Source: an uncultured Candidatus Saccharibacteria bacterium (GTDB lineage: Bacteria > Patescibacteriota > Saccharimonadia > CAZBQI01). From it: DNA of 49,776 nucleotides. The notes under the pieces are model-generated. The model was not told the origin of the DNA. It made no database searches and saw only the letters and a program-made list of their open reading frames with translations. The stretch covers positions 1 to 49,776 of the forward strand of contig CAZBQI010000006.1 in NCBI GenBank assembly GCA_964494105.1. Direction: 5' to 3'. The position numbers and the translations under genes were made by a program. Numbering within the stretch: position 1 is the first letter of the stretch; each line of letters opens with the position of its first letter. Shown piece by piece: positions 17,833-44,965 of the stretch.

Positions 17833-20037
17833 TTATCCGAAACGCCGCTCAAGTTCTCTTATAGCTTTTTCAAAAAATGGTGGTATACGTATACCAGTTA
17901 ACTCGCTTCTCCTTAATTGCTCAGGGTAAGCTGCGCTCCAAATTTTATCAAGCGGAATACCTGCATCCTCCCAATACGCCAGTGGATCTTCTTTAAATTC
18001 TTTTATTTTTTTAAAAGCTTCGTCATAGTCTTTGAACCTGTGAACAGTGTTTTTCAACCAAGGCTGGCCAAGAATTCCTTTTTTACTTTTCACCACAGCA
18101 CCGTCAACAAAAATATCCGTCGTATCAGAAACGGTACGGGTAAATTCGCGCAAACCCTTAAAAACGTCTCGCTCATCAACAAAAATTAGCGGACCTGGCA
18201 ATCCGCTAAATAATTTTTGTGCAGTCTGTGACATTAGGTGTTCCATTCCTGTGCCAGTTCCGCCAACATTAAATATTCTAATAGTACTTAAATGCTCCAG
18301 AACTGATTGGCGATGAAACAGTGCCTCTAATTTGCTACCGACTACTGCATGCGGCCCTTCATATACTCCACCTTGCCCAAGTGCCTCCGCATCAATTGCA
18401 TGCCCTATACTAAATAAGCCTTTGGAGCGACCAATAACGTCTGTCTGATACATAATACCAGGCCCATTGCCATGTATTAGACCAACTTTTCCAGAGTCGT
18501 TAAAAAGCCCCCCGAGATTATCAAAAAATCTAACAAGCTGGGGAGCAAACGCTTCCCCTACCTCGGGCTCTGCGCCACCAAACATTGCTACAGTTAATGA
18601 TAAGTCTTCTAGTTCTCTTATTTTATTTGGCCATACCCAAAAGCCACTCCGGTGAAATTCACGAAAGCCACTTTCGCCTTCCCAACCTATATGCACGCCT
18701 GCTCTTGCTAAGCCAGTTAATATCGTGTGGTCTTCTTGAGTCATTGCTAAGGGTCCAAAATCTCGGACTATAAACATCCGCGCATCACTTCGCTCAAATA
18801 ATACCTGCATGTCTCTTGGGGTTAGCCGCTCAGCTATAACAGCTCTGCTCCTCTCACCAGCGTTTGTTAACCCACTAGTAAGCTCTCCTAATTGTTCAAA
18901 ACCGATGGCAATTCCTCTTTCGGCTGCTGCTCGGTCTAAAGCCACTGAAATATTAAAGACTTCGTGATCATGGACGCCAGTTTGGTCCACAGCGCTTATA
19001 CCTCGGTGACTTAGTGCTAACGCAGAGACGCGCTTTTCATCCATCGTCCCAAAGATCGCATCAAGCGAACCTTCCCCGCTAAATAGCTCAAGGGGATTAT
19101 TGCCGTATATATGATGGCGCTGCCTTTCCTCTGGTGTCAAACGGCTAAACTGCGCAAAAACTGGTTCAGCCTGGGGTCGGTTTAATCGATACAGCCTCAA
19201 AGCTACACGCACATCAGACAATGACAGGTTATCCTGTCTATTTACTATCTCGATTTGACGCAATCGGTCTCGAGGATCAATAAATGTACCAGTTCCAGTT
19301 AATCTGTATGGGTCAAAGACTCTGCCACTATTAATTTGCTCGGCATCAATTGGCTCGCCCTCGGCATCAAAAAGCTGGTTCTGCACTTCTACTAAATAAG
19401 GACCGACGGAAAACTGCGCACCAAATATTGAAAATTCGTCAAGCTGATGGTCGGCGCCCGTCTCTCTAGCGGCAGTGTATTTTCTCGCAGCTGACCGCCC
19501 GTGTTTAGCAACGCTCAAAAGAGCATCGGGGTGACCAACTAAGAAACTTTCGTTCAATACAAACTCATAGTCTGCCAAGGGAACCAGAACACTGCCGTCG
19601 TCTCGAATTGTATAAGAGTCTCCTGGAAAAAATAATTTTTTATCAATAGCCTTTTTCACTTCTACCTCATCAACAGGTGTAATTTCGGTTTTATCTAAAA
19701 TTCGGCCAAAGGGTAGCAGACTGCCTTCATGCAGCAACAAATCGTTTTTCCCTGTAGGCAACCCACTAACAACTTCAGTCAGTCGCTCACCCAGTGTTGA
19801 ATAGTGCTGAAGATTCACAGGAACATAGATACCGCCGTCTGCCTGCACTATATCTCTCTGATAATCTTGCTCAACTCCGCTCGCCAACTGCGCTAATGCG
19901 CTGCGTCCTATCAACTGCGCCTGATCACCTAACCTCGCTACCTGTTCGGCACCTAAGGCAGTATCGTCCCAGCGCAGAAAGTACTCAGTGGTAGCAGTAT
20001 CTCTCGCTAAATGGCCATCGGCCGACAACTCACTCAT
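17833..20037 (-). CDS. Large LOG/SLOG-family nucleotide phosphoribohydrolase-like protein with an unrecognised ~480-aa N-terminal region
   Basis: VAMFGG, HGNGPGIM, FHRQ, VGGTGTGME (variant of PGGxGTxxE) and PLIFVD in the C-terminal third. Confidence 0.65.
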   Translation of the reverse strand: MSELSADGHLARDTATTEYFLRWDDTALGAEQVARLGDQAQLIGRSALAQLASGVEQDYQRDIVQADGGIYVPVNLQHYSTLGERLTEVVSGLPTGKNDLLLHEGSLLPFGRILDKTEITPVDEVEVKKAIDKKLFFPGDSYTIRDDGSVLVPLADYEFVLNESFLVGHPDALLSVAKHGRSAARKYTAARETGADHQLDEFSIFGAQFSVGPYLVEVQNQLFDAEGEPIDAEQINSGRVFDPYRLTGTGTFIDPRDRLRQIEIVNRQDNLSLSDVRVALRLYRLNRPQAEPVFAQFSRLTPEERQRHHIYGNNPLELFSGEGSLDAIFGTMDEKRVSALALSHRGISAVDQTGVHDHEVFNISVALDRAAAERGIAIGFEQLGELTSGLTNAGERSRAVIAERLTPRDMQVLFERSDARMFIVRDFGPLAMTQEDHTILTGLARAGVHIGWEGESGFREFHRSGFWVWPNKIRELEDLSLTVAMFGGAEPEVGEAFAPQLVRFFDNLGGLFNDSGKVGLIHGNGPGIMYQTDVIGRSKGLFSIGHAIDAEALGQGGVYEGPHAVVGSKLEALFHRQSVLEHLSTIRIFNVGGTGTGMEHLMSQTAQKLFSGLPGPLIFVDERDVFKGLREFTRTVSDTTDIFVDGAVVKSKKGILGQPWLKNTVHRFKDYDEAFKKIKEFKEDPLAYWEDAGIPLDKIWSAAYPEQLRRSELTGIRIPPFFEKAIRELERRFG

Positions 20038-20201: not shown

Positions 20202-20960
20202 TTACTCAGGTTTTTCTTCGTGGAACGCTTCTGCCGCTGTTTTGATTTCCTGCCATTCACGATAGGTGTATGTTGGTACATTATTAGGCTCAAAAGGCTC
20301 CCCGCTACTAACTGCTTCCTGTTTAAGTTGTTTCGCGTGCATATCGTTCGCCTGCGTCGCCCAACCGCGCTTGGATCGATTACTTGCCTGCTTTTTCTGA
20401 TGGAAATACTTTAGCTCTTCAGGCGTCATTGAGCCAACATTGTGCCAATCTTCCTCGCCCCAAACATCGGGGCGCTCTACGCGCCTATCAAATCCTTCTT
20501 CCAATGCAGACCATAGTAGCTCACTGGCAAAACGGTCAACTAGCAACTCGGCAACTTCATCGTGAGCGGTTACTGCGTTGCTAAACCTCAAGCTTAAATC
20601 GGCAAGTCGCTCCTGCAAGACACGATTTACATCAATATTATGGAAGCTATTTCTGAACACTTCAAGCACACTTCGCGCACTAACTTCAAGTTCAGGATCT
20701 TCTAGCTTTGTGTCTGAATTAGCCATTCTAATTGCAGCAGACAGAACGCCCATTTCATCAAGTAAATGCCCTGCTTCTGCGTCCCCTTCCCGAGATTCCT
20801 GCGCAACGGATGCCGCTATCTCTGCAATCGGTGTGCCGACAGGGAATTGCATTTGTGCCGTAGATAATCCAATCCTTGCAATATCGTCTACATCATAGGG
20901 AATAACAACCTCGCCAGAATCATTTCTAAGCGGTTCTCCTTGTTCTTGTCCAACACTCAT
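20202..20960 (-). CDS. Hypothetical acidic protein
   Basis: 252-aa ORF filling the gap, with its own consensus promoter; no family recognised. Confidence 0.75.
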   Translation of the reverse strand: MSVGQEQGEPLRNDSGEVVIPYDVDDIARIGLSTAQMQFPVGTPIAEIAASVAQESREGDAEAGHLLDEMGVLSAAIRMANSDTKLEDPELEVSARSVLEVFRNSFHNIDVNRVLQERLADLSLRFSNAVTAHDEVAELLVDRFASELLWSALEEGFDRRVERPDVWGEEDWHNVGSMTPEELKYFHQKKQASNRSKRGWATQANDMHAKQLKQEAVSSGEPFEPNNVPTYTYREWQEIKTAAEAFHEEKPE

Positions 20961-21089: not shown

Positions 21090-21422
21090 TTAAAATAGCT
21101 TGCCCCCAAGTGGCACATCTTTTGTGGGTGCAACCAAAACTGCCTTGCCGTTTTCATCTGGAAAACCAAGCGTTAACACCTCACTGACTGCCGGGCCAAT
21201 CTGCCGAGGCGGAAAATTCACCACACAGGCAACTAATTTGTTCGCGAGCTCTTCTTTAGAATAATTTGGTGGAAACTGCCCAACCGATTTTTTGATACCA
21301 ATTTCGGTGCCAAAGTCTATCTTTAGCTTATAGCTCGGGTTCCTCGCCTCAGGGTAATCCTCTACCTCAATAATTTTACCAACACGTATATCGACTTTTT
21401 CAAAATTTTCGTAATCAATCAT
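21090..21422 (-). CDS. csaA: tRNA-binding/chaperone protein CsaA (Trbp111-like OB fold)
   Basis: FEKVDIRVGKI, IDFG, VVNFPPRQIG...SEVLTLG. Confidence 0.93.
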   Translation of the reverse strand: MIDYENFEKVDIRVGKIIEVEDYPEARNPSYKLKIDFGTEIGIKKSVGQFPPNYSKEELANKLVACVVNFPPRQIGPAVSEVLTLGFPDENGKAVLVAPTKDVPLGGKLF

Positions 21423-21427
21423 GGTTT

Positions 21428-22144
21428 TTATGATAGCATGTAGCCCCCGAAGTGCGTCATGTTTGCATGGTTAGTTACCAATGCAGCTACCCGAGGTGTA
21501 TCTTGCTCAAGAGGTACATCGAGCCCGTGGAAAGACTGCAGACCACATACGTCTGCTCCGTTTACTATCAGTCTATCGCCCTCTTGCAGGCGAATCAGTG
21601 TAGCCTGTGCTGGATCAGCCGTGCGTCCAACTAAAAAGTCGACCTCGCCCAAAATATTCCACACCTCAATTGAAGGTGCATTTGCATTGCCGTCGTAGTC
21701 TCGATGCATCCCCATCCCGGAGCCTCTAGGATATTCTTTGACGGAAATTCTCGGTGTAAGGTAGGCTCGGTCAAACAAATTACTCGCAAAACCCATAATC
21801 ACCTCCAGACGATTAGCTAGAAGTGAAGAAAAAATCGCTTCAACCTCACGAGATTGCCCTAAAAATGCATTCGGGCGCGCACTACTATAAAAGCCCTTGC
21901 GAGTTTCAAGTATTTCATCTTCCGTTTTAATTACTAATGCACCCACCAGCCACTGGCGAAAGACTTCTGGGATGCCTCCGGCCAAATGCAAATGCGTGTC
22001 TGATCCAAGCGCGGCATAAGTGCGCTGTAGATGCTCTATTGATTCTATCTCTGCCAATGCGCGTTTTGCAGCTTCATATCGCACTCCCTCGAGTGTTTCG
22101 GCTTTAAACTCACGTCCATCAGCAGTTGCCTCACTATGTATCAT
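21428..22144 (-). CDS. 2OG-Fe(II) dioxygenase superfamily protein (AlkB-like fold)
   Basis: YPRGSGMGMHRD (HxD), distal SFHG His, TPRVA Arg; SD AGAGGT. Confidence 0.7.
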   Translation of the reverse strand: MIHSEATADGREFKAETLEGVRYEAAKRALAEIESIEHLQRTYAALGSDTHLHLAGGIPEVFRQWLVGALVIKTEDEILETRKGFYSSARPNAFLGQSREVEAIFSSLLANRLEVIMGFASNLFDRAYLTPRISVKEYPRGSGMGMHRDYDGNANAPSIEVWNILGEVDFLVGRTADPAQATLIRLQEGDRLIVNGADVCGLQSFHGLDVPLEQDTPRVAALVTNHANMTHFGGYMLS

Positions 22145-22170
22145 AGCGTTACCTCTTTCGATTACTGTTT

Positions 22171-22204
22171 AAAAATAAAAAAGCCCCCGTGTGTTACGAG
22201 GGGC
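22171..22204 (-). terminator. Rho-independent terminator (candidate attenuator 3:4 stem)
   Basis: Minus strand GCCCCTCGT-AACAC-ACGGGGGC followed by TTTTTTATTTTT. Confidence 0.85.
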
Positions 22205-22228
22205 AATATAATTGACTAAATTAGAGAA

Positions 22229-22294
22229 TTAACTATTACGCCCCATGGTGGGCGGCTGCGGGATTTGGAAATTGTGATTGTTTGAATAAATCAT
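22229..22294 (-). CDS. Putative leader peptide MIYSNNHNFQIPQPPTMGRNS (21 aa)
   Basis: ATG 22294 to TAA 22229 translated by hand; AGGT SD-like motif upstream; its 3' part overlaps alternative hairpins 5' of the terminator. Confidence 0.5.
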   Translation of the reverse strand: MIYSNNHNFQIPQPPTMGRNS

Positions 22295-22321
22295 ACTAAT
22301 ACCTACAGTAACATATTTATA

Positions 22322-23563
22322 CTATTGTGCAACTTTTAGAGTCTTCGTCAAATCTGCTAGCTTAACCAGCTCTGTCTTATCGCTGTCGCGCTTTTTTACT
22401 TCAGCACTAACCTTTTCTAGCGTTTTAGGGCTAACGACTACACGTTTTGGTATGCCAATTAAATCAGCATTTGCAAATTTGCTGCCAGCGCTTTCGTCAC
22501 GATCGTCATACACAGTCTTTACGCCGGCTGCCTGTAGCTTCTCGTACAAATTGTCTGCCTCCTTTTTTGACTCGCCAAGTGATATTAAATGCACTTGAGC
22601 TGGGGCAACCGACTCGGGCCAAAGAATACCCTTCTCGTCATTGAATTTTTCAACAATTACACCCATTACACGGCTTATACCTATGCCATAGCAACCCATA
22701 ATTGGCAGTTGTTGCTTGTTGTCTTTGTCGGTATAAGAAAATTTAAAGTCTTTTGAGTATTTTTGACCTAGATCAAACACATTCCCTACTTCAGCTGCTT
22801 TGGCTTCCTCTAAATCACCATTGCCACAGCTTGGGCATCTACTCCCAGGCTTTAGTTTGGCAATTTCATCTTCAACACAAAAATCGCATTTTTCGCAGTA
22901 ATATACATTGTCCTCACCTGCATCTGTCAAAACTTCAAACTCATAAGAAATTTTCTCGGAAAAATCACCGCCTGACGCTTCTGTAACTTTGGCTGTCAGA
23001 CCCATGCGTTTGTATATCTTTATATAGGCTTTTTTTACCTTCTCATAGAACCGATCGAAGTCTTCTTGATTCTCGTGAAAACTGTACATGTCTTTCATAA
23101 AGAATTCACGTCCACGCATTATGCCACTTTTGGCTCGCAGTTCGTCGCGATATTTCCACTGAATGTGGTATACGCTAAGCGGCAAATCTTTGTAAGATTT
23201 TACCTGTTTCTGCACTAATGGCGTCACTACCTCCTCCTGGCTTTGTCCAAGGGCGTATTCGTTATCGGTGCGGCTTTTGAGCTTAAATAACACATCAATA
23301 TTGTCCCAACCGCCGGTTGTCTTCCAGATACTGCTGGGATGGAGCTGGGCCATTAGAATTTCCTGCCCGCCAATGGCGTTCATTTCTTCGCGAACAATCT
23401 GCTCGATATTGCGCAATACCCTTAACCCTAGTGGCAAATATGAATATACGCCAGCCATTAACTGATCTACAAAGCCAGCTGCAGTTAATAGCTCGTGATT
23501 AACACTCTGGGCATTTTTTATGCTCGGTGTGCGGGTTTTTACAAAGTTTTGTGAAAGTCTCAT
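22322..23563 (-). CDS. proS: Proline--tRNA ligase (short form without the editing insertion)
   Basis: MAGVYSYLPLG, KYRDELRAKSGIMRGREFFMKDMYSF, MGCYGIGISR, ADLIGIP; start placed at MRLSQ. Confidence 0.97.
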   Translation of the reverse strand: MRLSQNFVKTRTPSIKNAQSVNHELLTAAGFVDQLMAGVYSYLPLGLRVLRNIEQIVREEMNAIGGQEILMAQLHPSSIWKTTGGWDNIDVLFKLKSRTDNEYALGQSQEEVVTPLVQKQVKSYKDLPLSVYHIQWKYRDELRAKSGIMRGREFFMKDMYSFHENQEDFDRFYEKVKKAYIKIYKRMGLTAKVTEASGGDFSEKISYEFEVLTDAGEDNVYYCEKCDFCVEDEIAKLKPGSRCPSCGNGDLEEAKAAEVGNVFDLGQKYSKDFKFSYTDKDNKQQLPIMGCYGIGISRVMGVIVEKFNDEKGILWPESVAPAQVHLISLGESKKEADNLYEKLQAAGVKTVYDDRDESAGSKFANADLIGIPKRVVVSPKTLEKVSAEVKKRDSDKTELVKLADLTKTLKVAQ

Positions 23564-28820: not shown

Positions 28821-28889
28821 CTAAGAAACACTAATAGACCCCCTCTTTTGATTTACAAGGGGTTTATTCTATGATGAGAACAACAACTT

Positions 28890-39181: not shown

Positions 39182-42100
39182 TTAAGTCGATTTTAGCGAT
39201 TCAAATACCTGTTCCCAATATTTCTCGTAAGCATTTCGAGTCCTGAACCTATTTTCACCTACAGTTGCCAATACATCGGCAGTATTCAACGCCCTCAAGA
39301 TTCGCAGGACTCTGGCATTATTTCCTAATCGAGAAGCTAATTCGCTAGGTTGCAAATCCTGGTTTGCACCGCCTTTTCCTCTTGTAATATCTGATACTAT
39401 GCCATCGTGTAAAATGGCTGCGGTAACTACCTGGATGTCTTCTTCGCTGAATCCCCATTCAGTCATTCGTTGGCGCGCAATATCAGCACTTGGCACATCG
39501 TGTGAACGATCTCTAGGGACTTTTTCATCTTGACGCCCAGTAGGTTTCCCAAAATCGTGGAAGAAAGTTGCTAATACTGCTAGCCGTCTGTCTGGCTTGT
39601 CTAGTGCTTCGTACTCTGGCAAAGATTTTAATATTTGTACTGCCTCTTTTATATGATTACCAAGTAAAACTCCATTGTGCTGATATCCTTCCTCGCTCGT
39701 TAGATTTTTCCAACCAGGAACTATATCTTTCAGCTCATCTGCATCTGCTCCTTCTTCAATCAATGTAACTGCCTGTCTACCTCTATCTGTAAGCTCCCCT
39801 GTATTTGAAGTTAATTCTGGATTAGATGAATTTGTTTCGGGCGCACTTGATACTACTGCTTCGAGCTCGCCAGTTAATTTAGTTGACGTTGATTCACTAA
39901 AGCCAGCCGCCCAATCAATTATGTAGTCACGTCTAGCTTTTAGTATTCGTTTCAGCAAGGCTCTATCGGCTAGTGGCAGGCGTACACTATCAACCTTTTC
40001 ATCTATTACATCGTCAGTTAGTTTTTCCTTCATTATTTTTGCTTGCGCTTTTATATCAGCCTCAGTTAGACCAGGGTACATCTGTCTCATGCCAAGACCC
40101 AAGCGCTTTTTATCAACGCCAAATTGCACTTCACCGACTACCTCGCTAAATAGTTCTTTACGCCCACCTTGAGCTCGATATAGCAAACCTCCTCCAGCAT
40201 CAACTCGCACTGTTTTACCGTCCACAACCATGGTATTTGCTTCGTTATATACGGCGTCCCAGTTAGCCAACAATGCGTCCATTAAAAAGCCGTCTTTGAT
40301 GTCTGGGGCCGCGCCCGGTACAGCTTCTTCAATAATTTCTGACGCATGCCCATACGAACCATCCACCCACACAACCTGAGTCTTAGGGACGGCCAGCCCT
40401 CCTGCTTCATATAAAAGGTTACCTAGGTGCTCATTCCATATCTGATCTGTAGAATCCAGCCGTTCAAATTTTACGTAATATTTTACCGGCCCATCAACAG
40501 TCGGCACGGTAAACGTACCCCCTTCGTTACTACCCGCCTTCTCGCCTGTTTTTAAGGAATAGTCCCAAACAGCTACCGAGACAGATAAGTTAAGGTCGGC
40601 GCGTGCAGCATCGTACTCTTCGGGCGTAAATATTAGTTCGCCCTGAATGTCATATATTGGTATATAAATTCCATTTTCTAGCACTACTTCTTTGGCCTGA
40701 GCCAAAGTAACATCCTTATCGCGCAATACTATGCCACTTATTTCAGTAGCTGGCATACCACCAAACATTAGGCTGTGGTGGGTAGACCTACCCTTTACAT
40801 GGTTCTGATCTGGCTGCCAGCTTGATTGTTCTCGGTCATACAGTAAATATATTCCAGAACCTTCTGTGACACCTCGACCCGTATAACCACCCGAAAGACT
40901 ACCATCTAATTGTTCTTGTACGGTTTGCCCCTTGGCTAAGAAGTCCGATTCTAGCAAGGTGAAGTCCACGTGGAAAGGATAGCTGTCGTTACTCGCAGAT
41001 TCACCCAATGCTTCACCCGGCAAATTACCGTTAAGGAGAACTAGTTCTAGGAAATCATTACTTGAACCGTGTACCCATTGTCCCGGCCTTAACTCTAGCT
41101 TATCCCGCACTAGAGCACGATTACGCTCGTCGGCGGCAGATTTACTGGTTTCATCACGACTTGTTTCGATGGTTTCTGCTAACCAGTACGCGAATAACAG
41201 TTTTTTCTGCATGCCGTTTAGCTGAGTTAGGGGCAGTTCTGTGAGGCTTTCAACTTCTGCGTCGCTCATGTCCTCTAGGTTGGCAACTCGACGTTTTTCA
41301 TCTACCGAGAGACTCGTAAAGGGAACTGTAGCAAACTCAAAATCATCAGCAAAGTTTTCGACGTTGTTGCCCTCGGGGGTTTGGATTCTTACAATTTCCG
41401 TTACCCGATAGTCACTTTGGGCTTGGGCTAACTGTGAACCCAGCCTGGTTTCTGCAAATAAAAATCTCTGCTTCCAGCTCGGCACAGCCTTTGTGAAAAT
41501 GGCTGTGATTTCGGCAATTCTAGCTTCTACATTGCCGTTGCCGAATATATCTGCAATAATTTTCTCTCTATTTGAGAATAAAGGCGCACCCGGCTCTAAT
41601 AGACCAAGAAAGTCTTCGTTGGCAAAAATCCTTTTAAAGCTTTCGATTTCTGATGGCCTCAGTACTATGCGCTCTAAAATTTGCGTGCTAATATTCGATC
41701 TTCTAAAAGCAGCCCCAAAGCCGTTCTTGGAGTTTTTACCTAATAACTCATTGACTTCTACTATGGCTGCCGCCGATGCTTCGATTTGTTCCGCATTAAC
41801 CTCTGCCCCAAGATTTAATCTAACTATGTGGGCAACGGCAGCAGCATATCTAGGGACAACAGATGGCTTGGTATCTAATAATTTTCCTAGGGATTCCTGC
41901 CATGATGCCCTGTGCATACTAGCCCAAACCAGCATTGGCTCATAAATATATTGTCCGCTCGTTTCTTCTCTGAAAGGAAGATAGTTAATGTAACCATTCT
42001 CTTCTAGTATTGTCTCCAGTTCAGAGAGTATTCGTTCTCGATCACCTTCCATCTCATAAAGCTGCTCTAGCGCCTTGGGGTCAAAAGAGAAATTATATTG

Positions 42101-44965
42101 TCTAAGCTCTTGTACAAACTGCACAACTTCCGGACGCTGGCTGAGCACTCGCATGACATCAATGTCTTCAACTTTAAACCCATAAAAACCCTCACTGACC
42201 TTAATAACAGCATCGATAATGTCTGGATTATCAGCTAACGCTTTAAGCAAGTCGAAGTTGCCACCGGCATCTCCACCAAATCGTTCGAACATTCGTGATT
42301 TGCTTTCTACAAACTGCTGGTACACCGAATACATAGCCTTAAGGTCGTATTTATTATCAACAATTTTACTAAGCGCATTTAGTGATTCTTCAAATTGCTC
42401 ATTATCCTGATTAAGGTTTGAAAAGAATTTATATGCATCTGCCCGAATTTTTTCTTGCACTTTTTCTGGTAAATACCCGAAGTTATCAATCAAGCCTATT
42501 AGAAGTTCTTGGTTACCATAGTATGAATCGACATGGGCCATTCCCAATAATTCACTTGCGTATTCCACGTTGCTAACTGCAACGTTCATCATTTCGCTTC
42601 GGATGTCATCGATACCAAAGAGCTCAGCTAGTTTTAAGGCATCTGGTAGGTGGCCTATATCGAGTGCAGCCTCAACCGCTAATAGCTGAGTGTAGTTATC
42701 TACCTTGAATTCCCCGTTGCGCAGAATCTCATTAAGCGTATCTTCGAAGCGTGGGCTACTACTAGCTAGTTCCTTTAGACTTTCAATGGTGAACTGTCGT
42801 GCTAAAGCCTCATTGAGCTCGGCCTCTGTTAGACCAAGGGTTCTTATTATATTCTCAGGATCACCCGCTTGTGCGTTTTTTAGTTCAATTACGTGCGACG
42901 CCATAATCGCCCGATATAGAGACTCGTCAACTGGTAAAAGTTCGGCAAAAGCCAGCGCTTCTTCAGAACTTCTGCGACTTAGTAATTCACGTACACCGGC
43001 AGCATATATGCGTCTGCATTGCTCTAATGCGTCCTCATGACTATCAGCATTTTCAACAATCCGAAAAGACGCAACTATTAAGGAATTTACCTGGTGTTCA
43101 TGCTCACCGTACCGAAGTGTTCTGCTTGGTAGAATTGACTCCATGAGCGAGAGTAATTTCACCGTATCCTCTGCTTCAAGCAGCTGTCTGGCTACAACCT
43201 CTAGCTCAATTCGGTAATGATAATCGCTAAAGAATGTCTCTACCTTGCGCTGGCCCAAAGCAATAGCGATATTTACAAGTAACTGATCAGCCTGATCAAT
43301 CTCTTTAATTTCGCTAGCAACGTATGCTCCTTTTAGTTGATCTAGAATAGCTTCACTAAGATCATCGTAGCCGAGCTCATGTGCCAGCACCAAAGATCTT
43401 GACGCTTCGGCAATTCTTCTTGCCGGGTATGAGCCTTGTCTCTCTAGAATAGAATGTGTTCCAGATAATATGATACTGCCCACATCAACATCGAATTCTT
43501 GAAGTTGCTTGGCTACTCGATTCAATACCGTCTCGCTAGTATATGTATCCACATTAATGAGCGCATCAATTAGTAGCTCAATGTCTTTCAGATCTGGCGT
43601 TTTATTACCTGCCTTTGCCTGCTCAATGGCTTCATTGGTCCTTTTGCGCAAAACATCTTCCATTACTGCCTTAATTTCATAAGAGTCAATTTCTGACTGC
43701 GTAAGCGTTTCTATAGCACCATGCAAATTCCCTTCACCTATTTGATGATCCGCAATTTTTTTAACTAATCTTGCACGCGCATACTGGCTGTCAGCCGATG
43801 AACGACCAAGCATTCCTATGGCTTTTTCCGTTTGACCTAGCTCAAACATATCGACGCCAAAGTCCGAGCTATCATATGTGGATTCTCCAAATTCAGCCCC
43901 AACCTGTTCTTCTAATTTCTCAATGACAATATCTAACCCAGAACGATCGCCAAGGTCTTTTAAGTGATGTGCGATTTGTTTTAGCTCAAAAATTCTCCAT
44001 CTACCCTCAATTAGTAGCGCTGCATCCATGGCCTCATGCAATGAAGATATGGCTTTATCTTTATCATTTAACTCATCGAATTTACGCGAGGCTGATCGCA
44101 ATACATCACATTGAGCGTCAGCAACACCATGCTCCTTAATAAATGCAACAGCCGTTTCCGTAAGTAATCTTGCCTTATCAGCATTACCTTTTTCTATCTC
44201 GAAATCAGCTATGTCAATCAAATTGCGAGCATAAAGCGAGCTTAAGATGTCGCGCTCCTGTGCTGTTAATTCTGTGCTTAATTGCGTGCCAACAGAGTCT
44301 TCAACATCCTGAAGCAACTCTTGTTCGTCCATATTTCCAGCAATTACACTTAAGTCAACATATAATTGTGACCTAGGATTTTCCTCTGACTCCTCTACTA
44401 AATGATCGTCTAGTGCTTTTAACATGCTCCTAACCGTCGCTGGCTGGAGGTCAACTTGATACATTATAATTTCTTTGGTTGTAGGGTCGGCAGTTTGCAA
44501 TAAGGCTGCTGCTTTTTTGCTTGCCTCGATTGCTTTTCCTTGCTCTGCCAGACCGTTTATTTCAGCTGCTTTCTCAACTACTTCATCTAGTATTCTTTGC
44601 TTTTCTTGTCGCTTTGCAATTACTGTTGCTTTAGCTTCACTAATTTCTTCTTTACTAAATCTATCGCCCCACCCAAGTTCTTTTCTTACATCAGGGTCGT
44701 CATCGGCAAGGTCATCAATAGGTGCAACTATTGATTCATCGCTATCAGCGCCACTTACAGCACCTCCAACAGCGACATCTCCAACCCCAACTTCTACTTC
44801 ACTAAGCAAAGCAGTATCATCGCGATCTATGACATCACCAGTTATTCCCTCAACTGCTCCTGTCGGGGGAATATCGGCTACTGATCCATCAATTTTGGCT
44901 GGATCACTTGCAGCTACGTCTGCGTCGCCGTAAGTTACATCTTCGTCTATTGGTGAAAAGGGCAT
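39182..44965 (-). CDS. 1927-aa multidomain protein: acidic N-terminus, TPR-like helices, ART-like domain, HipA/CtkA/PI3K-like kinase, HD domain
   Basis: WVHGSS...LVLLNGNLP; GSNEGG...YYVK...NE...DALLANWD...N...RVDAGG; HNG...NH...HDFGKP...H...H; uninterrupted ORF. Confidence 0.7.
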   Translation of the reverse strand: MPFSPIDEDVTYGDADVAASDPAKIDGSVADIPPTGAVEGITGDVIDRDDTALLSEVEVGVGDVAVGGAVSGADSDESIVAPIDDLADDDPDVRKELGWGDRFSKEEISEAKATVIAKRQEKQRILDEVVEKAAEINGLAEQGKAIEASKKAAALLQTADPTTKEIIMYQVDLQPATVRSMLKALDDHLVEESEENPRSQLYVDLSVIAGNMDEQELLQDVEDSVGTQLSTELTAQERDILSSLYARNLIDIADFEIEKGNADKARLLTETAVAFIKEHGVADAQCDVLRSASRKFDELNDKDKAISSLHEAMDAALLIEGRWRIFELKQIAHHLKDLGDRSGLDIVIEKLEEQVGAEFGESTYDSSDFGVDMFELGQTEKAIGMLGRSSADSQYARARLVKKIADHQIGEGNLHGAIETLTQSEIDSYEIKAVMEDVLRKRTNEAIEQAKAGNKTPDLKDIELLIDALINVDTYTSETVLNRVAKQLQEFDVDVGSIILSGTHSILERQGSYPARRIAEASRSLVLAHELGYDDLSEAILDQLKGAYVASEIKEIDQADQLLVNIAIALGQRKVETFFSDYHYRIELEVVARQLLEAEDTVKLLSLMESILPSRTLRYGEHEHQVNSLIVASFRIVENADSHEDALEQCRRIYAAGVRELLSRRSSEEALAFAELLPVDESLYRAIMASHVIELKNAQAGDPENIIRTLGLTEAELNEALARQFTIESLKELASSSPRFEDTLNEILRNGEFKVDNYTQLLAVEAALDIGHLPDALKLAELFGIDDIRSEMMNVAVSNVEYASELLGMAHVDSYYGNQELLIGLIDNFGYLPEKVQEKIRADAYKFFSNLNQDNEQFEESLNALSKIVDNKYDLKAMYSVYQQFVESKSRMFERFGGDAGGNFDLLKALADNPDIIDAVIKVSEGFYGFKVEDIDVMRVLSQRPEVVQFVQELRQYNFSFDPKALEQLYEMEGDRERILSELETILEENGYINYLPFREETSGQYIYEPMLVWASMHRASWQESLGKLLDTKPSVVPRYAAAVAHIVRLNLGAEVNAEQIEASAAAIVEVNELLGKNSKNGFGAAFRRSNISTQILERIVLRPSEIESFKRIFANEDFLGLLEPGAPLFSNREKIIADIFGNGNVEARIAEITAIFTKAVPSWKQRFLFAETRLGSQLAQAQSDYRVTEIVRIQTPEGNNVENFADDFEFATVPFTSLSVDEKRRVANLEDMSDAEVESLTELPLTQLNGMQKKLLFAYWLAETIETSRDETSKSAADERNRALVRDKLELRPGQWVHGSSNDFLELVLLNGNLPGEALGESASNDSYPFHVDFTLLESDFLAKGQTVQEQLDGSLSGGYTGRGVTEGSGIYLLYDREQSSWQPDQNHVKGRSTHHSLMFGGMPATEISGIVLRDKDVTLAQAKEVVLENGIYIPIYDIQGELIFTPEEYDAARADLNLSVSVAVWDYSLKTGEKAGSNEGGTFTVPTVDGPVKYYVKFERLDSTDQIWNEHLGNLLYEAGGLAVPKTQVVWVDGSYGHASEIIEEAVPGAAPDIKDGFLMDALLANWDAVYNEANTMVVDGKTVRVDAGGGLLYRAQGGRKELFSEVVGEVQFGVDKKRLGLGMRQMYPGLTEADIKAQAKIMKEKLTDDVIDEKVDSVRLPLADRALLKRILKARRDYIIDWAAGFSESTSTKLTGELEAVVSSAPETNSSNPELTSNTGELTDRGRQAVTLIEEGADADELKDIVPGWKNLTSEEGYQHNGVLLGNHIKEAVQILKSLPEYEALDKPDRRLAVLATFFHDFGKPTGRQDEKVPRDRSHDVPSADIARQRMTEWGFSEEDIQVVTAAILHDGIVSDITRGKGGANQDLQPSELASRLGNNARVLRILRALNTADVLATVGENRFRTRNAYEKYWEQVFESLKST

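Follow-up and report, generated by a model that had tools for sequence, protein, structure and literature searches.

Why should a strong transcription terminator stand directly in front of a gene that it would cut off? The question is raised by a 177-nt spacer in a 49,776-nt stretch of DNA from an uncultured Candidatus Saccharibacteria bacterium (contig CAZBQI010000006.1 of assembly GCA_964494105.1; hereafter the window), which separates proS (stop codon TAG, 22324-22322) from a gene for an oxygenase-like protein (ATG at 22144) that is itself followed by csaA. All window coordinates given for features of this leader and of the cassette to which it belongs refer to the minus strand. The terminator hairpin lies 117 nt from the proS stop and the end of its U tract is just 27 nt from the oxygenase-like ATG, a gap too small for a promoter, so that the oxygenase-like gene and csaA must be transcribed through the terminator. 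Among the intergenic regions of the 50-kb window it is, moreover, the sole strong canonical terminator on the same strand. The answer that we favor, at a probability of roughly one half, is that the spacer, which forms the 5' leader of the two-gene unit made up of the oxygenase-like gene (2OG-like, for its resemblance to 2-oxoglutarate/Fe(II) oxygenases) and csaA, may serve as a ribosome-mediated transcription attenuator.

The candidate attenuator and its only homolog

The leader can be divided into the following parts, where SD stands for Shine-Dalgarno, ORF for open reading frame and L087 for the homologous locus described below:

22324..22351, minus strand: promoter-like TTGACG-16 nt-CACAAT within the 3' end of proS (9 of 12 positions matched in a consensus scan)
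22326-22321, minus strand: alternative -10 element AATAGT, which aligns with TATAGT of L087
22301..22304, minus strand: SD-like AGGT, 6 nt 5' of the leader ATG (read from the sequence)
ATG 22294 to TAA 22229, minus strand: leader ORF of 21 codons plus TAA, predicted product MIYSNNHNFQIPQPPTMGRNS (sequence and translation)
22250..22264, minus strand: candidate control codons ATC CCG CAG CCG CCC (I-P-Q-P-P), from ribosome-mask partition functions
22254-22250, minus strand: segment 1, CGCCC, the anti-antiterminator arm inside the codons CCG CCC (1:2 hairpin, present in the minimum free energy (MFE) structure)
22244-22239, minus strand: segment 2, GGGGCG, predicted by folding to pair with either segment 1 or the 5' arm of the terminator
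22209..22231, minus strand: AT-rich spacer hairpin between segments 2 and 3, predicted by folding to stack within the 2:3 structure
22204-22183, minus strand: intrinsic terminator (3:4), GCCCC(U)CG-UAACA-CGGGGGC, a stem of 8 bp interrupted by one bulge and capped by a loop of 5 nt (-12.0 kcal/mol)
22182-22172, minus strand: U tract (TTTTTTATTTT), read as UUUUUUAUUUUU after the terminator

An earlier, sequence-only reading of this DNA had proposed a leader-peptide attenuator here, and the 21-codon ORF, the AGGT, the CGCCC/GGGCG and GGGGC/GCCCC pairings and the strong terminator all lie where it had placed them, with the terminator indeed in the 5' leader of the 2OG-like gene. The 1:2/2:3/3:4 geometry that it described around the leader ORF is likewise borne out by the folding energies: by ViennaRNA the terminator comes to -12.0 kcal/mol, the 1:2 hairpin to -9.4 and a composite 2:3 structure, which also uses a UAAUAG/UAUAUU helix and the inner AT-rich hairpin, to -10.3. 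The MFE structure of the full spacer combines 1:2 with 3:4, and transcripts cut before the 3' arm of the terminator adopt 2:3 as their MFE; a mutually exclusive antiterminator (2:3) and anti-antiterminator (1:2) are, in silico, both present.

In the attenuator that we propose, RNA polymerase would transcribe the 21-codon ORF either from a weak putative promoter in the 3' end of proS or by read-through from proS. Smooth translation to the TAA would place the ribosome over segment 2, allowing 3:4 to form and stopping transcription 27 nt before the oxygenase-like gene, and with no ribosome at all segment 1 would sequester segment 2 and the terminator should form too. A stall within I-P-Q-P, by contrast, would hide segment 1 and free segment 2 for the 5' arm of the terminator, which would permit read-through into the 2OG-like gene and csaA. 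That the leader ORF is translated, that its Pro (or Gln) codons act as the sensor and that termination is conditional is what we infer from this arrangement.

To describe the effect of ribosome position, the footprint (from nucleotide -12 relative to the P site to +11, +13 or +16) was masked at each codon and partition functions were computed, an equilibrium calculation for a kinetic process that speaks to feasibility and not to function. With no ribosome the probability of the terminator, P(terminator), was 0.81 in the window. Stalls with the A site on codons 11-14 (I11-P14) favored the antiterminator, and P(terminator) was 0.60, 0.33 and 0.31 with the A site on P12, Q13 and P14, respectively. 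Past this zone it rose to 0.78 with the A site on P15, and it stood at 0.86 from codon 16 to the stop. Of the Q-I-P-Q-P-P stretch in which the sequence-only reading had placed the stall, the portion from I11 to P14 is the one that yields modelled antitermination; a stall of the EF-P type on the PP pair itself, where the P site holds P14 and the A site P15, leaves segment 2 buried, and the terminator returns. This trigger is disfavored, the effective stalls in the model coming 1-3 codons earlier.

The weight of the attenuator case comes from comparative evidence rather than from the window pattern, which alone is uncommon and, after the look-elsewhere effect, not compelling, a mild curiosity. 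An exhaustive HMMER search of 1.84 billion representative proteins returned a single true homolog of the 238-aa oxygenase-like protein (P0122, 37% identity, E 7.5e-32), whose gene (1793-2503) is carried by a JGI metagenome contig, L087, directly upstream of a csaA 70% identical to that of the window. The genes upstream of it are unrelated to those in the window, a 190-aa gene preceding the spacer. This 252-nt spacer opens with a promoter-like TTGCTA-16-TATAGT in a position equivalent to that in the window, followed by an ATG ORF of 18 codons, MINLFIRYITSLVVPTPS, ending in ...VPTPS, the start of which is at or beside the predicted transcription start. Within the codons CCG ACU CCA, GACUCC can pair with GGGGUU as a 1:2 hairpin, while segment 2, CCGGGG(U), is complementary to CCCCGG of the terminator and is separated from it by an AT-rich spacer. 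The terminator, GCCCC-GGUGAA-GGGGC-UUUUUU (-10.2 kcal/mol), is 229 nt away from the stop codon of the preceding gene; the likely start of the gene behind it, which the N-terminal alignment suggests to be M15 of the called protein, follows 43 nt later. In both loci the in-frame codons over segment 1 encode a hydrophobic residue followed by Pro-x-Pro, IPQP(P) in the window and VPTP (GTT CCG ACT CCA) in L087. The conservation of leader ORF and alternative pairing for which the sequence-only reading had suggested to look is thus seen in the locus of the sole homolog, in a different upstream context, and extends to these two loci.

In the mask model L087 is the cleaner switch. For a transcript beginning at the modelled start site, P(terminator) was 0.94 without a ribosome (0.17-0.22 when the 5' end was extended), fell to 0.00-0.23 with the A site on V14, P15, T16 or P17 (P17 only at a reach of +11 or +13), and returned to 0.99 at S18 (+13) and to 0.99-1.0 at the stop codon. 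Its sharp dependence on ribosome position, together with the geometry of both leaders, fits classical attenuation as far as the modelling goes.

How often would such an arrangement appear by chance? When the 117 nt 5' of the hairpin were dinucleotide-shuffled 20,000 times, 7% of the shuffles offered a 5-nt partner for its 5' arm, 0.4% also a 1:2 partner, and 0.1% in addition an ATG ORF over segment 1. Since real sequence is patchier than shuffles, we also used a natural null of 480 terminator-like hairpins from 0.78 Mb (the window, related Patescibacteria and other loci). The full pattern requires an antiterminator, an anti-antiterminator and an ORF that, on termination, would leave its ribosome over segment 2 but not over segment 3; it was found in 2.3% of these hairpins, or 0.8% when an ATG was required (4.8% and 1.5% by simple 5-mer matching). 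Both the window and L087 pass this one thermodynamic pipeline, including the placement of the stop codon that masks segment 2. A terminator-like hairpin on the same strand, 8-75 nt upstream, precedes 3.3% of the 610 genes compared; combined with the 0.8-2.3% for the geometry, the probability of chance replication in the sole homolog is about 1e-3 or less, before a discount explained below. Local alignment of the two leaders scored 45, compared with a maximum of 38 over 472 natural terminator regions and with 1 in 1000 shuffles that reaches 45, although the score reflects largely generic features and the global identity is just 53%, in AT-rich sequence. A profile built from the two leaders and run with nhmmer against the window and 84 fetched loci detected no additional copy. 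A metagenome scan with a DNA pattern (ATAGTATA...GGGG...GGGGCTTTTTT) gave at least 120 matches, with no 2OG-like or csaA gene nearby, and these were set aside as chance matches.

A cassette inserted between proS and csaA

The upstream neighbors of the leader are tsf, frr, uppS, rseP, a CAAX protease gene and proS. The three closest public ProS relatives (L083, L084 and L085, with ProS 90, 84 and 80% identical) share this upstream operon, and in all three proS overlaps csaA by 4 nt (ATGA); no spacer, terminator or 238-aa gene lies between proS and csaA in these loci. Given this overlap, the leader and the 238-aa gene are best read as an insertion of about 0.9 kb and not as part of proS, and the two appear, from the sequence comparison, to have entered the genome jointly. 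Pairwise ProS identities give the tree ((window,L083),L084,L085), in which the window is sister to L083, making a gain in the window lineage the most parsimonious course. The scenario that the sequence-only reading had set against its own proposal, a hairpin that merely ends the rpsB-proS operon, is contradicted by the overlap of proS and csaA, with no terminator, in the closest relatives, and for the same reason we reject the hairpin as an ancestral terminator of that operon. Its position directly after proS, which had been taken as part of the setting, turns out to be incidental: the leader travels with the inserted cassette. No mobility genes or flanking repeats were seen at the insertion, and neither were other copies of the GC patch. 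The cassette and the gene that follows it are laid out as follows:

21423..22335, minus strand: lineage-specific insertion, leader plus 2OG-like gene, about 0.9 kb and approximate in extent (from comparison with L083, L084 and L085)
21428..22144, minus strand: gene 1, orphan of 238 aa with SD GAGGT at 22155-22151 (Pfam sub-threshold; HxD/H/R)
21090..21422, minus strand: gene 2, csaA/Trbp-type tRNA-binding protein of 110 aa, which starts 5 nt after gene 1 (Pfam PF01588)

The 238-aa protein is probably a divergent AlkB-like 2OG/Fe(II) oxygenase, judging from its sequence. The two homologs have H147-x-D149, H206 and R218 in common. PF13532 (AlkB-like) matches the 238-aa protein with an E-value of 2e-4, and its scores, 22.0 and 16.7 bits, are below the cut-off of 31.2. 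The earlier label of 2OG-Fe(II) oxygenase accordingly keeps its conserved HxD...H motif, while the Pfam matches stay sub-threshold. The match to the PDB entry 5xeg is weak (E 0.19), and the AlphaFold2 model built from the two-sequence alignment is unusable (predicted local distance difference test, pLDDT, 33). No word-sharing relatives emerged from a word-based search of 5.8 billion clusters, a profile search gave no members beyond P0122 and a protein-pattern metagenome scan for the family found nothing; the family comprises 2 members in about 15 billion public proteins, both encoded directly upstream of a 110-aa CsaA-type gene. One further protein of 6016 aa (P0123) contains 7 separate stretches that match residues 141-180 of the 2OG-like protein (HRDY...EVWN; E 1.5e-5).

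The assignment of the second gene is firm, with 150.1 bits for NF007495 (cut-off 117) and 139.8 bits for TIGR02222 (cut-off 119.65), both over the full length of the protein. CsaA/Trbp proteins are OB-fold tRNA binders (PMC11286949). The genes under putative control are therefore a 2OG-like protein and CsaA rather than proline biosynthesis, in agreement with the earlier remark that they are not amino-acid biosynthetic.

Several observations concern the surroundings of the cassette. The ORFs 3' of csaA (20202-20960, 252 aa, and 17833-20037, 734 aa) match no Pfam or NCBIfam family; the 252-aa gene is conserved after csaA in L081-L083, and an ORF of 1927 aa lies further along (39182-44965). The contig of an independent Logan assembly, SRR8893623 (L081), is 100% identical to the window and its position 1 corresponds to window position 22205, 1 nt upstream of the 5' arm of the terminator; strains that differ in the cassette or leader may have made the assembly graph branch at this point, unless the start is a coincidence. 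The strain also occurs in SRR30350710. Species-representative genomes retrieved through ProS are at best 68% identical and have unrelated genes 3' of proS (mreB, other terminators), which makes them uninformative for the leader. The region 3' of proS is highly variable across Patescibacteria, with mreB in many genomes; in L086 (5772-6809), a more distant relative whose ProS is 72% identical, the place of csaA after proS is taken by a convergent gene that encodes AA_kinase and PUA domains, the combination known from glutamate 5-kinase/ProB. Canonical terminators with a GC hairpin and a U tract are very rare in the intergenic regions of this genome. A second hairpin (CCCCTT...AAGAGGGGG) is present at 28833-28868, between two plus-strand genes, and no terminator was found at the convergent gene ends in the window by the criteria applied. 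No tRNA genes were found in the window.

Weighing the attenuator against its alternatives

A considerable number of points weigh against an attenuator. Its upstream signals are poor: promoter-like sites are as frequent as expected from shuffles, so that the call at 22324..22351 is weak, at background level, and that in L087 likewise, and the SD of the leader is weak, being AGGT in the window and absent from L087. Weak SDs are general in this genome, and fewer than half of the genes in the window are preceded by AGGT or another 4-nt SD core, for which reason AGGT does not discriminate. Lacking an SD, the L087 ORF would have to rely on leaderless initiation or on coupling to a second ORF. The leader ATGs of the two loci do not align with each other. 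(What does align with the L087 leader ATG is the ATG of a 3-codon mini-ORF, ATG TTA CTG TAG, at 22303-22314, which lies 5' of the leader ORF and has its stop overlapping the AGGT; in L087 itself an 8-codon ORF at 1642-1668 overlaps the start of the 18-codon ORF.) The codons are hardly more telling: Pro accounts for 3 of 21 in the window and 2 of 18 in L087, the codons used are not rare (CCG 29%, CCC 16%), and their presence is in part imposed by the C-richness required of segment 1, one in three frames of which reads Pro. In the mask model the window switch is modest and the antiterminator is never strongly dominant; the effect shrinks with other assumed 5' ends and is gone when 80 nt of proS RNA are included, and segment 2 is occluded with the A site on P14 at some assumed 3' reaches and on P15 at every reach tested.

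The statistics call for similar caution. The stability of the whole spacer is at the level of shuffles (z = -0.54), the L087 leader is no better, a 21-codon ATG ORF alone occurs in 7.6% of shuffles, and among the natural hairpins an antiterminator appears in the truncated MFE of 87%, with an anti-antiterminator as well in 27%, so that such pairings are commonplace by chance. The pipeline was fixed after L087 had been seen, which makes the p-values optimistic and calls for a discount of perhaps tenfold. Chance matches pre-selected by the DNA pattern reach alignment scores similar to that between window and L087, and the alignment evidence is treated cautiously as a result; the comparison as a whole rests on two loci, too few for covariation statistics. 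No Rfam family, Phe_leader, L10_leader, Mg_sensor and T-box included, matches in the window at gathering thresholds.

Many of these same figures would be expected if the cassette simply carried a constitutive, leaky terminator that ends upstream transcription (from the proS operon here, from the 190-aa gene in L087) and gives the downstream genes a fixed, low level of read-through, the ORF and the 5-bp pairings being coincidental. The commonness of alternative pairings and of the ORF, the unremarkable overall fold and the weak or absent SD all suit this explanation, as does the fact that in the window, once read-through RNA from proS is included, the terminator prevails wherever the ribosome stands. 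Against it, the relatives do without a terminator between proS and csaA, both hairpins stand well away from the preceding stop codon (117 and 229 nt) and close to the next start codon, and neither the joint chance of about 1e-3 or less nor the sharp position dependence of L087 would be anticipated; we regard a plain terminator as somewhat unlikely. The terminator might instead be conditional and answer to another sensor, such as autoregulation by CsaA, uncharged or damaged tRNA, or a small ligand that stabilizes 2:3 or 1:2, with the ORF incidental. A terminator conserved within the 5' leader at both loci, an operon that encodes an RNA-binding protein and an ORF with poor translation signals are all compatible with such control; no aptamer-like structure is evident, however, in leaders that are short, AT-rich and folded at shuffle level, Rfam searches of the spacer at E-values up to 10 gave no T-box or other match (the best scores, 14-16 bits against thresholds of 33-80, are at chance level and driven by the terminator), and at the stop of either ORF a terminating ribosome would mask segment 2. 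This makes a different sensor unlikely on its own, yet when it is taken jointly with the attenuator, terminator-based control of some kind in the leader of the 2OG-like/csaA unit is likely.

Two further explanations carry far less weight. Transcripts could start inside the 5' arm, from a promoter overlapping or just upstream of the hairpin, and so escape termination, leaving the hairpin only to insulate the cassette. The AT-rich TATATT at 22212-22207, just upstream of the 5' arm, invites this idea, but it has no acceptable -35 element at a spacing of 16-18 nt (TTAATT is 14 nt away), the scan found none, and the nearest -10-like run in L087 would start transcription upstream of the entire hairpin; we rejected TATATT as a promoter for want of a -35 at the proper spacing and consider the explanation very improbable. 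That the 21-codon ORF encodes a functional micropeptide with no regulatory role is harder still to credit: an ATG ORF is present in both loci, but the two peptides share just the MI start and the hydrophobic-P-x-P motif, differ in length and start position, and have no homologs.

Possible role and known systems

Patescibacteria have tiny genomes and depend on hosts, and their gene regulation is almost unexplored. Should the attenuator be real, leader-peptide attenuation would operate in Patescibacteria (the candidate phyla radiation, CPR), and such a switch could move with its gene as a cassette. It would be the first leader-peptide attenuator described in this group as far as literature searches show, in which no top-ranked paper joined Patescibacteria with attenuation or leader peptides. 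For the two-member orphan family it offers a functional lead, namely an operon with a tRNA-binding gene and apparent translation-dependent control in both cases; with two known instances only, its practical reach is limited. It is tempting to go further and picture the leader as a sensor of translation status (the supply of Pro-tRNA(Pro), EF-P activity, or damaged or hypomodified tRNA perceived through P-x-P pausing) that switches a mobile tRNA repair or modification module of oxygenase and CsaA, a doubtful proposal in our estimation. If true, it would describe a stress-inducible tRNA-maintenance cassette in host-dependent, amino-acid-auxotrophic Patescibacteria.

How does this leader relate to the attenuators that are already understood? 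Like trpL, hisL, pheL, thrL and leuL, it combines a 1:2/2:3/3:4 arrangement with control codons in segment 1, a stop placed to cover segment 2 and a terminator before the first gene. In contrast to these leaders, the genes behind it are not biosynthetic for the amino acid sensed, its helices are much shorter (cores of 5-6 bp), and the run of cognate codons that defines amino-acid operon attenuators is absent (3 Pro in 21). The Phe_leader model scores 14.6 bits against a gathering score of 55, which reflects the terminator alone. A stalled ribosome on a short upstream ORF is also known to remodel a terminator/antiterminator pair in the leaders of msrD (MsrDL, PMC10314930) and of Listeria hflXr (PMC6310831). 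Both induce genes that act on the translation apparatus, a theme that a tRNA-binding protein and a possible RNA oxygenase would fit, the suggested link to translation being drawn solely from the CsaA domain and the weak resemblance to AlkB; unlike them, the leader described here has no known stalling motif or homology.

For the sensor, the closest parallels are the leaders of mgtA (mgtL) and mgtCBR (mgtP) in Salmonella and E. coli, whose Pro-codon ORFs are established sensors: when Pro-tRNA(Pro) or EF-P is limiting, the ribosome slows at the Pro codons, the stem-loops switch and more transcription proceeds into genes that are not biosynthetic (PMC6460261). The Pro codons of mgtL are interspersed (positions 3, 5, 7 and 9), much like the P-x-P of this leader, whereas mgtP has three consecutive ones (PMC6460261). 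The present leader bears no sequence or Rfam relationship to either, is only some 110-140 nt long, uses a canonical intrinsic terminator with no riboswitch part, contains fewer Pro codons (3/21 and 2/18), resides in Patescibacteria and would regulate an orphan oxygenase-like protein together with CsaA. By analogy, then, its sensor would stand closest to mgtL and mgtP and its working principle would be that of a trp/his-type 1:2/2:3/3:4 attenuator. The novelty is partial, since both trp/his-type attenuation and Pro-codon leaders are known already; what would be new is the phylum, a leader borne on a cassette and the orphan gene pair that it appears to control.

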